NCBI GenBank assembly: GCA_000993205.1
Contig: LBVU01000002.1
Coordinates: 117,079-181,078, forward strand
From: Candidatus Woesebacteria bacterium GW2011_GWB1_39_10
Lineage (GTDB): Bacteria > Patescibacteriota > Microgenomatia > UBA8517
Reading direction: 5' to 3'
Length of the DNA: 64,000 nucleotides
Under the pieces are notes generated by a model. It searched no databases and was not told the origin of the DNA. It saw only the letters and a list, made by a program, of their open reading frames with translations. This document shows, piece by piece, positions 4,437-44,666 of the stretch. The translations under genes were made by a program, and so were the position numbers. Within the stretch, counting starts at the first letter, position 1; the number at the start of each line of letters is the position of its first letter.

Positions 4437-4880
4437 TTAGCCACGACCTTCTCGCTTCGGCGGGAAGGGCAAAACAAAGAATTTCGAAACTTCCTCTAAG
4501 ACTCTGAAAAAGTCACCCTCATCCATTTCTGATAATTTATTCCAAATTCGTTTTGAACTAAACACACGGATTTGTGAAATCATAACAGAAACAGTTTTAC
4601 CTTGCACTGATACCGGAACATAATATTTATTATCCTTAAGCTTTGTGCTCATGGGGATTCCCAAAAACAATTCACGATTGAATTTTTTGATAATTAGAAC
4701 GGGTCTAACAAAGTTTTCATTTTTACCATCCTCTTCAAAACCAACATTTACACCAACAGAAACCCACCAAATATCACGTTCTTTAAAAAGAGGTGGTGTT
4801 TTGATTTTGTAATGAGACTGCTTTTTCTTTTCAATCCATCCATCAAAATCTTTTGGGAAATTTACATCCATATAAAGCAA
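4437..4880 (-). CDS. PemK/MazF-family toxin-like protein (likely true start at an internal ATG, MDVNF...)
   Basis: RDIWWVSVGVNVGFEEDGKNENFVRPVLII and FLGIPMSTK match the PemK/Kid pattern GEIWLVSLDPTAGHEQQGTRPVLIV...LPVVVPVTS; track start is TTG. Confidence 0.6.
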   Translation of the reverse strand: MLYMDVNFPKDFDGWIEKKKQSHYKIKTPPLFKERDIWWVSVGVNVGFEEDGKNENFVRPVLIIKKFNRELFLGIPMSTKLKDNKYYVPVSVQGKTVSVMISQIRVFSSKRIWNKLSEMDEGDFFRVLEEVSKFFVLPFPPKREGRG

Positions 4881-4982
4881 TTATAATACTTTGAAGGAAA
4901 ATATTTACCTTGAAGTAGAAATTTATCCCTCAAAGTTTCAGCGAAGTGGGATCAAACTGTCCTTCGGCATGCTCAGGATAAA

Positions 4983-5008
4983 TTGGGACAGTGAAAAGAC
5001 TGTCCCAA
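4983..5008. promoter_or_regulatory. Perfect 10-bp inverted repeat TTGGGACAGT-gaaaag-ACTGTCCCAA in the divergent region between the PemK-like gene and the 5088 ORF
   Basis: Read directly; no T-run so probably an operator rather than a terminator. Confidence 0.4.
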
Positions 5009-5087
5009 TAGAAAGCGACGTGGCTAGATTTTAACATACTCTTTCCCCGATTTTTACTCGTCAGAAAAGAAGTGTATAATTCCCGCC

Positions 5088-5453
5088 ATGAAACAAGAAA
5101 TACTATTTGCGGAAGCCAAAAACCTGAAAGCTGAATTCACCTTTTCAAAACTGGATGCAGAGGAAAAAGAAATAGTTGACTCACTTGTCACATGGTCCAA
5201 TCCGGAAAGGTTTTCGGGTCAAATCAAACAACTTCACGGCAGAAGCGTTGTTATCAAAAGTCCGACAAGACACGTTTCTGATCCCATCGACTTTTTCATG
5301 GAAAAATATGACGGAATCCAAATTTTCGGATTTGGAGGCGCAAGGACAATGATCCGTGAAGGTGTCGCAGAAGTACCAAGCAAAATTGAAATTACACAAC
5401 TTAACGAATCCGACCATTCAAAAGAGCTTGCACAGATTCAGGAAAATTTTTAA
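5088..5453 (+). CDS. hypothetical protein (121 aa)
   Basis: ORF only. Confidence 0.45.
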   Translation: MKQEILFAEAKNLKAEFTFSKLDAEEKEIVDSLVTWSNPERFSGQIKQLHGRSVVIKSPTRHVSDPIDFFMEKYDGIQIFGFGGARTMIREGVAEVPSKIEITQLNESDHSKELAQIQENF

Positions 5454-42320: not shown

Positions 42321-42962
42321 ATGGAGTTACTATTAATTATTTTAGGAATAGCCGGACTTGCCTATACCATAATCATTCATGAGGTCGCCCACGGCTGGGT
42401 GGCCAATCGTCTGGGCGACCCTACCGCAAGATTAACGGGCAGGCTAACCCTTAACCCTATTCCGCATATTGATCCTTTGGGAACTATAATTGTCCCACTC
42501 CTTATGTATTTTTCCCCTGCGCATTTCGTTTTTGGTTGGGCAAAACCGGTCCCCATTGACCCATATAACCTCAAGAATCCAAAAAAAGATACTCTCCTAA
42601 TTGCCTTGGCTGGGCCACTCTCCAATATAATTCTAGCTGTAATTTTAGCCATCATTTTTTGGCTCATACCAATGCCACAAATCTTCGCGGATTTGGTCAA
42701 AACCATGGTCGGACTTAACGTAGGCTTGGCTGTTTTTAATTTGATCCCGGTCTCCCCACTCGATGGAGAAAAGATACTCGTCGGACTTTTACCTGACAAA
42801 GAAGCCAGAGAATTTGAATATTTTATGAACAAATTTGGATTCATTCTTCTTGCATTCTTAATATTCCCGATTTTTGGAGGCGTATCTCTAATATCCCCAA
42901 TTCTATACCCAATAATTAACTTTATATTGAATCTTCTAATACCGGGTTTCCCACGGTATTAA
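42321..42962 (+). CDS. site-2 protease family (M50B) membrane zinc metalloprotease
   Basis: IIIHEVAHGWVANRLGD HExxH in first TM, multiple TM helices. Confidence 0.8.
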   Translation: MELLLIILGIAGLAYTIIIHEVAHGWVANRLGDPTARLTGRLTLNPIPHIDPLGTIIVPLLMYFSPAHFVFGWAKPVPIDPYNLKNPKKDTLLIALAGPLSNIILAVILAIIFWLIPMPQIFADLVKTMVGLNVGLAVFNLIPVSPLDGEKILVGLLPDKEAREFEYFMNKFGFILLAFLIFPIFGGVSLISPILYPIINFILNLLIPGFPRY

Positions 42963-43586
42963 CTTTTTCACATTGACTTACATGGTACAATTATATTGAC
43001 CCTGTTAAAGAAGGATGCGGTCGGAATTTCCTGATCAAGTATATTCTAAAATGGGAGGACGGAGTCCGTTAAGTAATGCGCAAGCTAGCTTGATGGCAGT
43101 TCACCCACCTGGTTTTTCCAGGAATATCGCCGTACTTTTGATAGCAGGGTCACTTTTTTGCCTGAGAACAAAAACAGGGGTCAATCTTTTTCAAAACAAG
43201 GCACTTCGGCATTGTACAAGAGCGAAGTGCCAAAGAGGATATTATGCCTGTGTAAGTTTATTTAGGCTTTGGTTGCAGGAATCTCTGTCGGTGTACTGGG
43301 GAGGGAAGTTAGCTGTACTTGTTTTAATTGTACCTGCCTTTGCCTAGCTAATTCGGCGGTCCTGTAATCTAGAACTTTTTCCATATCTTGTTTGTTTTGA
43401 CCTTTCGGTTTTTTAATGGCCGTCTTGGACAGATCCGAAAGGGTTTGAGTACACCGAGGCGGCCATTTAAGATCTAAAAAGAAAATTTTTGTGTTTTTGG
43501 GTACAAAGGAATTCTCGCCGACACTTTGCGGAGGCGCAGGCTTTAGGCCGAGCCGGCCTGCCCTGCCGATCTGACTTCCATTTCAG

Positions 43587-43671
43587 TGCCAAGAGCAGGA
43601 TTCGAACCTACGTAGCCCTTCCGGGCGCCTGATTTACAGTCAAGTGCGTTTGACCACTCCGCCATCTTGGC
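43587..43671 (-). tRNA. tRNA-Tyr (anticodon GTA), class II with long variable arm
   Basis: Manual fold: acceptor GCCAAGA/TCTTGGC, anticodon loop CTGTAAA, variable hairpin GCCC-GGAA-GGGC, T-loop GGTTCGAATCC. Confidence 0.8.
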
Positions 43672-43673
43672 AT

Positions 43674-44306
43674 CTAATTCAAAAGGTCAGTAGCAATTAT
43701 ATCAATATCTAAAAGGATTTGCCTTAACAATCTGGTATCGTAATATCTTACATGGACAAGTCCGTACGGCATTTTCCCCACTTTTTCGGTTTTAAAATCT
43801 CTACGTACATATGGCTTAGAAAATTGTTTTTGAGGAATATTCAATTTCTCCGACCAGTATTCAATTAATTTGCCACTATTCTGATTGGAAAAACAGTAAA
43901 TATATACTCTCAATCGCTTTTCATTCACAAAGTAAATTTTTCTAAGCATTCTAGTAAATATTAAGAGCATTTTCTCGTTACTGTTAGCAAAATCGACAGC
44001 CGCTTTGTTTGCTTTTGACCCTTCGGCCCAGTATAGCGACAGCCCACTAATAAATAATTTTTGTAAGTTTATATCTAACTTATCTATTCTCTTAAAAGAC
44101 AGAGGGCTTCTCTCAAATTGAATTTTAATAGTTTCTGACGGTTTTCTTCTTTTGATTTTATTTCGCCTCATAAAACTAATAACTCTCCAAACAGAAATAT
44201 TATATTTCTGGGCAATTTCATTGGCACTCAAGCCGAACTTATTGTAAAGCTTCAATACATCAATCTTGTCAAGCATACCAGATCTATGGTATTCTCCACT
44301 TGCCAT
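43674..44306 (-). CDS. HTH DNA-binding protein, possibly LAGLIDADG-like homing endonuclease
   Basis: N-terminal HTH GLSANEIAQKYNISVWRVISFM; segment LFISGLSLYWAEGSK weakly resembles a LAGLIDADG motif; located between tRNA genes. Confidence 0.4.
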   Translation of the reverse strand: MASGEYHRSGMLDKIDVLKLYNKFGLSANEIAQKYNISVWRVISFMRRNKIKRRKPSETIKIQFERSPLSFKRIDKLDINLQKLFISGLSLYWAEGSKANKAAVDFANSNEKMLLIFTRMLRKIYFVNEKRLRVYIYCFSNQNSGKLIEYWSEKLNIPQKQFSKPYVRRDFKTEKVGKMPYGLVHVRYYDTRLLRQILLDIDIIATDLLN

Positions 44307-44402
44307 ACTGTCAACTATTCAAATTTGATATAATTCACACTACATGCAGGGATAAACAAGTTTCGTCTAACGACGTAAACAAAGTTTGTCCCAGCATTGC
44401 AT

Positions 44403-44474
44403 GCCGGGATAGCTCAACGGTGGAGCAACGCTTTTGTAAAGCGAAGGTTGAAGGTTCAAATCCTTTTCCCGGCT
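44403..44474 (+). tRNA. tRNA-Thr (anticodon TGT)
   Basis: Manual fold: acceptor GCCGGGA/TCCCGGC, D-arm GCTC..GAGC, anticodon loop TTTGTAA, T-loop GGTTCAAATCC. Confidence 0.7.
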
Positions 44475-44574
44475 CTTGGCAAACTTTCATTCCACCCACT
44501 CCGGCTGGGCAAAGTTTTGCATATAAACCGACTTCCATAACCACGTACACATTTTTTGGTATAATTGAGTCCGC

Positions 44575-44646
44575 GCCTGGGTAGCTCAGTGGTAGAGCAC
44601 CAACTTGGTAAGTTGGGGGTCGTGAGTTCAATCCTCACCTCAGGCT
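44575..44646 (+). tRNA. tRNA-Thr (anticodon GGT)
   Basis: Manual fold: acceptor GCCTGGG/CTCAGGC, D-arm GCTCAGTGGTAGAGC, anticodon stem CCAAC/GTTGG loop TTGGTAA, T-loop GAGTTCAATCCTCAC. Confidence 0.75.
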
Positions 44647-44666
44647 CAAAATGAAGTCTCAAAAAC

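Follow-up and report, generated by a model that had tools for sequence, protein, structure and literature searches.

6S RNA is considered nearly universal in bacteria. Described 6S RNAs are 160-200 nt long and fold as a rod that has a closing stem, an apical stem and a large 5' central bulge faced by a hairpin; a small hairpin in that position is described for 6S-1 of Bacillus subtilis and for lactic-acid-bacterial 6S RNAs (PMC8414754 for both statements). No paper was found on 6S RNA in the Patescibacteria or Candidate Phyla Radiation (CPR). Among mobile DNA, large-serine-recombinase integrases and invertases of the Hin/Gin type drive integrative or invertible elements, including elements next to tRNA genes, and the bridge RNAs of the IS110 family are non-coding RNAs encoded 5' of the recombinase gene. 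The subject here is a gap at positions 42963-43585 of a 64-kb stretch of Candidatus Woesebacteria bacterium GW2011_GWB1_39_10 (contig LBVU01000002.1), which is referred to here as the window. This gap, flanked by the stop codon of an M50-family protease gene (42321-42962, +) and by a tRNA-Tyr gene, is likely a composite of two unrelated parts, a divergent 6S RNA and a lineage-specific insert ending in the relic of a recombinase cassette.

The first of these parts, an element of ~163 nt, is most likely a divergent 6S (SsrS-type) RNA of this lineage, as judged from family match, fold, covariation and synteny. The nearest public genomes to the window are metagenome-assembled genomes of Candidatus Woesebacteria and other Microgenomates (in CP066686 the M50 protein is 92% identical to that of the window), identical contigs are known from aquifer metagenomes, in runs such as SRR1658343 and SRR1658465, and 80 loci were retrieved via the M50 protein and compared with the window by blastn. 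When 4227 Rfam families were scanned at permissive thresholds against 42850-43700 on both strands, 6S (RF00013) was the sole non-tRNA family with E<0.1 in the gap; its match at 42996-43154 (+) covers model positions 1-187, which is the full model, with 21.7 bits and an E-value of 0.038. Full-length 6S matches, again sub-threshold, were found at the orthologous site in L001 (27.4 bits), L005 (26.2 bits), L002 (22.4 bits), L006 (21.7 bits), L009 (29.3 bits) and L044 (25.6 bits), and no Rfam family besides 6S recurs at the orthologous element.

Window positions 42964-43161 are kept, by blastn, at 93% in L001, 86% in L002, 75-76% in L004-L006, 71% in L007 and 69% in L003, and in all seven of these relatives the element lies directly 3' of the M50 stop codon. 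With the eight sequences, RNAalifold predicted 41 pairs, of which 13 show compensatory changes, and a covariance model built from the same alignment (R1) places the element directly after M50 in 14 Microgenomates/Woesebacteria loci at E<=2e-6, including L008, L009 and L011-L014, with a further match in L044 (E = 0.0085) in a wider search. Across 14 sequences, both sides have changed in 28 of the 41 pairs and 92.7% of cells are paired, as opposed to 37-51% when the partners are slid, and none of 500 shuffles reached the observed values. The hairpin on the 3' side of the bulge (CCUGG/CCAGG) has standard pairs at all five positions wherever letters are present, with two of the five changed on both sides. 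A second clade model, R2, gave a weak match in L019 (4594-4836, +; 18 bits, E 0.046) directly 3' of an M50 gene whose product is 49% identical, and judging by this locus the order of M50 followed by the RNA may extend beyond the 14 confirmed loci.

In size and layout the element agrees with the published description of 6S RNA, having the rod shape (fold z-score -5.26), a closing stem, an unpaired 5' bulge of ~30 nt, an apical stem and, on the 3' side of the central bulge, the hairpin that is a 6S feature. It shares with RF00013 the rod, closing stem, 5' bulge, apical stem, terminal U-run and alignment over the full model, and it is present in one copy in the window. As in E. coli ssrS, the 3' bulge carries UUCACC followed by a CCUNG...CNAGG hairpin (CCUUG/CAAGG in E. 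coli), whereas the genomic context differs, being zapA-ssrS-fau in E. coli and 3' of the M50 protease gene near tRNA-Tyr here. The small hairpin opposite the bulge is predicted in the same place as in B. subtilis 6S-1, with which no sequence relationship is detectable beyond the family-level consensus. The window gave no evidence of a second paralogue such as 6S-2. Directly 5' of the element, TTGAC and TG.TA..AT are invariant in 8 of 8 aligned orthologous loci, where they end 5-7 nt 5' of the first paired base, and a T-run follows the last paired base in the alignment. From these sequence signals, the RNA is probably transcribed from a promoter of its own, the TGnTAnnAT block directly 5' of it, and probably ends at the closing stem and U-run.

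Several observations weigh against an assignment to 6S, and some of them would suit a small RNA specific to the Microgenomates that is rod-shaped like 6S and has another function. All of the Rfam 6S matches (21.7-29.3 bits) lie well under the RF00013 gathering score of 46.4; the 6S model gives no match in L008 or L011-L014, which are R1 orthologues, nor in the weak syntenic candidate L019, leaving no bridge to the threshold through distant relatives. In a 2.2-kb E. coli test region, the only non-collapsed alignment of R2 is full length and falls at 982-1176, where ssrS is annotated at 984-1166, but it scores just 3.6 bits (E~0.8) and is not significant, and R1 gives a partial match to ssrS of 2.2 bits. 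Long imperfect hairpins are, moreover, a common shape, and the 14-sequence alignment used for covariation was fitted to the model, which favours structure, although the slid controls remain far lower. The TTGAC-to-TACAAT spacing is 7 nt, and since this is not canonical -35/-10 spacing, we only infer a promoter role for the block. A lineage-specific RNA of other function is nevertheless quite unlikely, because 6S is the sole family to match, over the full model, on the right strand and at the orthologous site in seven loci that include the divergent L009 and L044; because the layout is specific to 6S (a large bulge on the 5' side, flanked by G-C-rich helices, and a hairpin in the bulge on the 3' side); and because the UUCACC and CCUNG/CNAGG motif is held in common with E. 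coli. The covariance-model check that had been proposed for the gap in the initial annotation, where 6S was one of four families named, returned 6S at a sub-threshold score, short of the covariance-model hit asked for there, and no match for the other three families, and it is the comparative evidence that rescues the 6S-like RNA.

Those other families were RNase P, transfer-messenger RNA (tmRNA) and signal recognition particle (SRP) RNA, and the reading of the entire ~620 bp as one large structured RNA, of one of these families or new, is extremely improbable. It would draw on the fold of 43155-43586 (+), which is better than shuffles (z = -3.9), and on a gap somewhat richer in G and C than the window. 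However, the fold signal resolves into two local hairpins; only the first ~165 nt are kept in relatives, tRNA-Tyr being directly next in L004-L006 and the rest missing from L001; and the RNase P, tmRNA and SRP models have no match at E<=10 on either strand of 42850-43700, which, together with the lack of any tmRNA call by ARAGORN, rules these three RNAs out. An RNA gene does exist in the gap, as had been suggested, but it is confined to those first ~165 nt. GGAGGACGGAGTCCG (43056-43070), to which a loose resemblance to the RNase P P4 box had been ascribed, is instead the 5' strand of the 6S-like apical stem, flanking the central bulge. The statement that the window otherwise lacks RNase P, tmRNA and SRP RNA agrees with the Rfam scan of all 64 kb at curated thresholds, which found four tRNAs and nothing else. 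The GC enrichment of the gap is weak (44.1% at 42963-43586 compared with 40.3% for the window, with a standard deviation of 2.9% among 624-nt windows, 11% of which are at least as rich), and the sole part that stands out is 43500-43585, where 86 nt with 59% GC rank in the top 1% of windows. The GC-rich stems given as examples, gaggcggccatttaag and ggccgagccggcctgcc, are real but do not belong to the conserved RNA, as both lie in the cassette relic described below: gaggcggccatttaag forms the 3' side of a hairpin in 43395-43485 that is strand-specific, and ggccgagccggcctgcc sits in the GC-rich tail adjoining tRNA-Tyr.

A protein-coding gap, in which the longest open reading frame (ORF; 110 aa, 43015-43347, +) or a 40-aa minus-strand ORF (43262-43384) is real, is likewise very improbable, and the earlier view that no convincing coding sequence lies between M50 and tRNA-Tyr is borne out. 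Some gene callers do annotate a 110/98-aa ORF on identical contigs. Against this, none of the six gap ORFs of at least 30 aa has a Pfam match at E<=1, and the 110-aa ORF begins within the covarying RNA and ends in DNA that is absent from relatives with 92% M50 identity, so that it is not conservable across relatives; the RNA alignment includes indels of lengths not divisible by three. For the 40-aa ORF, the retrieved loci hold no homologue, and no ribosome-binding site was seen at a usable distance from it. Judged against Pfam and the retrieved loci, no ORF of the gap is credible as a gene.

The 6S gene is, with fairly high confidence, a further member of a known family that standard annotation misses in this lineage: at the standard threshold, an Rfam scan annotates a 6S RNA neither in the window nor in the 14 related Patescibacteria loci to which it was applied, and a clade-specific model such as R1 or R2 would make its annotation in such reduced genomes possible. 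If it acts like the characterised 6S RNAs, the RNA would mimic an open promoter and occupy the housekeeping RNA polymerase holoenzyme until released by the making of short product RNAs, with the 5' bulge as their template; the exact ends of the transcript, its binding to the polymerase and the synthesis of product RNAs are presumed here from the family. Should the assignment to 6S be true, these reduced genomes retain a global regulator of RNA polymerase. The coordinates of the elements discussed above and below are collected in Table 1.

Table 1. Predicted elements between the M50 protease gene and tRNA-Tyr, with the flanking tRNA gene (positions in the window).
Feature	Position	Strand	Remarks
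Upstream block TTGACT-N4-TGG-TACAAT	42973-42991	+	Extended -10-like (TGnTAnnAT); candidate promoter of 6S-like RNA
6S-like RNA gene	42997-43159	+	~163 nt; Rfam 6S match, fold z-score, synteny, covariation
Closing stem of 6S-like RNA	42997-43007 with 43142-43152	+	
5' central bulge of 6S-like RNA	~43024-43053	+	~30 nt, unpaired, AU-rich
Apical stem of 6S-like RNA	~43054-43107	+	
3'-bulge hairpin of 6S-like RNA	43108-43122	+	CCUGG-UUUUU-CCAGG
U-run after closing stem of 6S-like RNA	43154-43159	+	
Spacer block	43160-43240		Common only to L002; hairpin-bearing
Hairpin GGCACTTCG/CGAAGTGCC (inverted repeat I2)	43200-43208 / 43223-43231	-	Followed by UUGUUUUG when read on the minus strand
Lineage-specific stretch	43241-43384		Contains 40-aa minus-strand ORF (43262-43384) lacking support
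Degenerate cassette leader RNA (H motif)	43385-43471	+	
H motif, helix P1	~43389-43399 (5' strand), 43443-43453 (3' strand)	+	5' strand decayed
H motif, helix P2	43400-43408 with 43435-43443	+	ACCUUUCGG pairs with CCGAAAGGG
H motif, stem B	43415-43428 with 43454-43467	+	AAUGGCCGUCUUGG pairs with CCGAGGCGGCCAUU
Class-2 leader relic	43483-43556	+	Aligned with intact class-2 leaders
IRL-like sequence	43483-43499	+	AAAATTTTTGTGTTTTT; within class-2 leader relic
Start of GC-rich domain X	43508-43556	+	GGAATTCTCGCCGACACTTTGCGGAGGCG...GGCCGAGC; within class-2 leader relic
tRNA-Tyr (GTA)	43586-43671	-	Rfam scan and ARAGORN; 3' end adjoins relic

The second part of the gap, an insert of 425 bp (43160-43585), is missing from the closest relatives. 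In L004, L005 and L006 the tRNA-Tyr gene (-) follows ~30 nt after the 6S-like RNA, and L001 holds no homologue of the insert and has unrelated sequence, then tRNA-Thr and tRNA-Tyr, both on the plus strand. The same junction is occupied elsewhere by a membrane-protein gene (L003, L008), a 118-aa ORF (L011) or a GIY-YIG ORF (L002), and because relatives hold such differing content there, the junction is regarded as a hot spot of insertion and rearrangement. The gap is not a pseudogene of these junction genes, as tblastn with the membrane protein and the 118-aa, GIY-YIG and 80-aa ORFs finds nothing in it, and it is not a repeat within the window, which holds no second copy of the insert in its 64 kb. 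At the start of the insert, 43154-43236 is shared with L002 only (blastn, 87% identity to L002 5341-5425), and this block has fold z-scores of -2.3 (+) and -2.8 (-) over 43160-43240. The hairpin in this block looks like a weak minus-strand terminator, since UUGUUUUG follows it on the minus strand and since in L002 the same hairpin is positioned just 3' of minus-strand ORFs; it would stop transcripts arriving from tRNA-Tyr, and a simple terminator scan made no call at 43200-43231. Further on, 43241-43384 has no similarity to any retrieved locus and folds no better than shuffles on either strand.

The end of the insert belongs with a family of cassettes. A metagenome scan with the hairpin pattern TTAATGGCCG-N25-45-CGGCCATTTAAG returned at least 120 contigs (loci L100-L219), where few matches would be expected by chance (a rough estimate, not computed); the family counts given below (120 loci, 54 with a downstream tRNA, 70 distinct leader copies) are counts among the matches listed. 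The pattern has 0 matches in 2.9 million viral contigs, on which ground a phage attachment site or phage element was rejected. The cassette is common in groundwater metagenomes; when intact, it is made up of a promoter, the H motif, which is a structured leader RNA, and a large serine recombinase gene, set against the CCA end of a tRNA 3' terminus. A promoter-like TTG...-N17-TATAAT precedes the H motif in the family contigs, and the ~25 nt between this promoter and the hairpin pair with the hairpin loop to form helices P1 and P2, cognate duplexes having a mean of -28.0 kcal/mol compared with -11.8 kcal/mol for non-cognate ones. In the 70 distinct copies, 94.3% of the cells of P1 and stem B pair, as opposed to 25-49% in slid controls; 9 of the 10 pairs of P1 are changed on both sides, with G-U pairs that are specific to the plus strand. 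P1/P2 and stem B interleave with linkers of 1-5 nt, and on this geometric ground alternative conformers are suspected, as opposed to a compact pseudoknot. In the suspected switch, stem B, along with the U-rich tail, would serve as a terminator, and the competing fold, P1/P2, would gate recombinase expression. In 12 loci whose copies are intact, neither the H motif nor domain X, a GC-rich region found in some of the cassettes, has an Rfam match at E<=1.

A 500-550-aa protein is encoded on the same strand directly 3' of the motif in 92 of the 120 loci, and it is classed as a large serine recombinase because it carries the Pfam domains Resolvase, Recombinase and Zn_ribbon_recom. Two classes can be distinguished. 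In class 1, the start codon lies ~10-35 nt past the motif in the loci examined, while in class 2 (L112, L131, L153, L212, L213 and L219) the ~300 nt of domain X stand before the start codon, at ~+60 to +370 nt after the hairpin. A 20-30-nt inverted pair, AAAGTTCTTTAAAATTTTTGCG / CGCAAAAATT...TTAAAGAAC, closes domain X, whose 3' part copies the tRNA-proximal repeat in inverted orientation; the domain could constitute a large structured RNA or else a group of recombination sites. Where a locus reaches far enough, an opposite-strand tRNA almost always overlaps the 3' end of the recombinase ORF, and the adjoining tRNAs are of many types (Thr, Gly, Glu, Gln, Leu, Lys, Val, Ala, Arg, Asn, Ile and Pro). 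Examples of the cassettes are found at L112:12015-12633(-) and L131:2381-4443(+) and in L136 and L109.

An inverted-repeat match was found by blastn in 41 of the 54 loci with a downstream tRNA. In 38 of these the repeat is 82-171 bp long and 80.6-100% identical within the locus (at least 91% in 35 of the 38), and in 32 of the 38 it starts inside the tRNA 3' end, by at most 6 nt and usually by 4-5, and continues into the C-terminal coding region of the recombinase. Its partner lies 5' of the H promoter in class 1 or within domain X in class 2, and in the loci inspected the inner ends of the repeats lie at GGTTCGA cores. The length of these repeats and their near identity point to cassettes that may invert or move DNA around tRNA genes. 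Since no locus has an inverted orientation (of domain X, or of the recombinase relative to the leader) together with an intact recombinase, neither inversion nor transposition or other mobility is demonstrated; part of X is reverse-complemented in L197, L110 and L151, which have no recombinase gene on the available sequence (the L110 contig ends 163 nt past the motif start). About 90% of the informative family members are linked to a recombinase, and some 11 informative loci are without one, their leader abutting the tRNA directly (L151, L174, L179, L197, L210 and others).

As mentioned above, serine recombinases drive elements next to tRNA genes, and the cassettes resemble such elements in their protein with Resolvase, Recombinase and Zn-ribbon domains, their position at a tRNA 3' end and their bracketing inverted repeats. 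They are unlike them in holding little beyond the recombinase and leader and in having long repeats that begin inside the tRNA CCA end. With IS110 elements they share a structured RNA directly upstream of the recombinase on the same strand; the cassette enzyme, however, is a classical large serine recombinase and not of the DEDD/IS110 type, and in the H motif the variable parts are paired to one another and not exposed in open guide loops. A role of the H motif as a guide or bridge RNA was rejected, because its variable segments make up covarying helices and do not track the adjacent tRNA type, loci with the same tRNA type bearing different variable sequences.

The window is tied to this family by blastn over 43400-43498, and motifs of domain X carry the similarity to ~43556. 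Intact class-2 leaders read AAAATTTTTGCGTTTTT ... GTTCGAGCCGACAGTTTCGGAGGCG ... GGCCGAGC, for which the window has ATTCTCGCCGACACTTTGCGGAGGCG...GGCCGAGC where the family has GTTCGAGCCGACAGTTTCGGAGGCG...GGCCGAGC, and the class-2 core GTTCGAGCC is mutated to ATTCTCGCC. The hairpin in 43395-43485 is strand-specific, with -35.5 kcal/mol and a z-score of -4.87 on the plus strand as opposed to -1.25 on the minus strand. Stem B (AAUGGCCG...CGGCCAUU, with a covarying inner part) is present and P2 is kept, and P1 is mostly lost or reduced to G-U pairs. The 5'-strand/loop duplex, at -13.5 kcal/mol, is the second weakest of the 70 copies, against the family mean of -28.0 and the non-cognate mean of -11.8, and CATATC stands where the family has TATAAT or TATATT. 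The 3' end of tRNA-Tyr (-) lies 114 nt past the motif, on the opposite strand as in the family, and the tRNA starts 171 nt from the motif start, the other recombinase-less copies having 89-514 nt. No long inverted repeat was found at this copy and no recombinase homologue anywhere in the 64-kb window, and for the latter reason the window copy is classed as a recombinase-less relic. In the proposed history, a cassette would have inserted at tRNA-Tyr and would then have lost its recombinase gene, inverted repeats and promoter consensus, while one leader helix decayed. The last ~200 bp of the insert are most likely non-functional debris of such a past insertion and deletion.

Some features of the relic speak against this account. 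The similarity past 43498 consists of short motif matches made by eye, with no statistical alignment, and the sequence of insertion followed by recombinase loss is drawn from other loci and was not observed at this tRNA-Tyr. In addition, stem B is intact and the three differences of the strain variant L085 in the 3' arm all preserve pairing through G-U/A-U exchanges, which, along with the strand-specific fold and the U-rich tract 3' of the stem, would allow a residual function. The copy at 43385-43471 might on this basis still work, either as a small RNA or as a plus-strand terminator or insulator that separates the 6S and tRNA-Tyr units, which converge here, but this is unlikely, given that the promoter consensus is gone, that the 5' strand of P1 has decayed and its duplex is weak compared with the family mean, that the motif is missing from the nearest relatives and that a family so largely linked to recombinases is represented here without one. 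Contig breaks fall at 43274 in L088 and within 43426-43454 in L086, L087, L095 and L098, all of them assemblies of the same population, and the strain variant L085 (4094-4194, compared with window 43450-43500) switches there to a more canonical leader, ..CCAGGACGGCCATTTAAG..AAAAAATTTTTGCGTTTTC. These breaks and the switch suggest a second, more intact leader copy or allele in the population.

The relic is unimportant for this genome, and the cassette family that it revealed, with its metagenome contigs numbering at least 120, is the most novel lead of the analysis. No description of the H motif leader or of the cassette family was found in the literature searched, and both appear to be undescribed. 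It is proposed tentatively, at somewhat less than even confidence, that a widespread and hitherto undescribed class of leader RNA controls large serine recombinase genes in compact cassettes at tRNA CCA ends, in groundwater bacteria that probably belong to the CPR, and that the hairpin at 43415-43467 is a relic of it. The leader would then be a candidate RNA switch over a recombinase, and the cassette family could help explain the differing order and orientation of tRNA genes among relatives.

Among minor observations at the junction, CAGGGGTCAATCTTTTT (43180-43196) resembles the 3' end of the 6S-like RNA, CAGGGTCACTTTTTT (43145-43159), and L002 carries an insert of ~500 bp (4836-5345) placed exactly 3' of the 6S closing stem, within which lies a 91-aa GIY-YIG-like ORF (4881-5156, -) named from sequence motifs alone. 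Insertions may have recurred at the 6S terminator. The tRNA-Tyr gene is on the plus strand in L001 (after tRNA-Thr; 4962-5241) and in L007 (after another tRNA; 4870-5196), and on the minus strand in the window (43586-44647 region), L003-L006 (L004 4880-5054), L008, L009, L011 and L012; the tRNA cluster beside the 6S gene is repeatedly rearranged among relatives. Immediately upstream of tRNA-Tyr in the window and on the same strand, a 210-aa ORF (43674-44306, -) has no Pfam match above threshold, only weak helix-turn-helix-like N-terminal matches and, by eye, a LAGLIDADG-like 'LYWAEGSK' motif, and it could represent a free-standing gene of the homing-endonuclease-like kind within the tRNA cluster.

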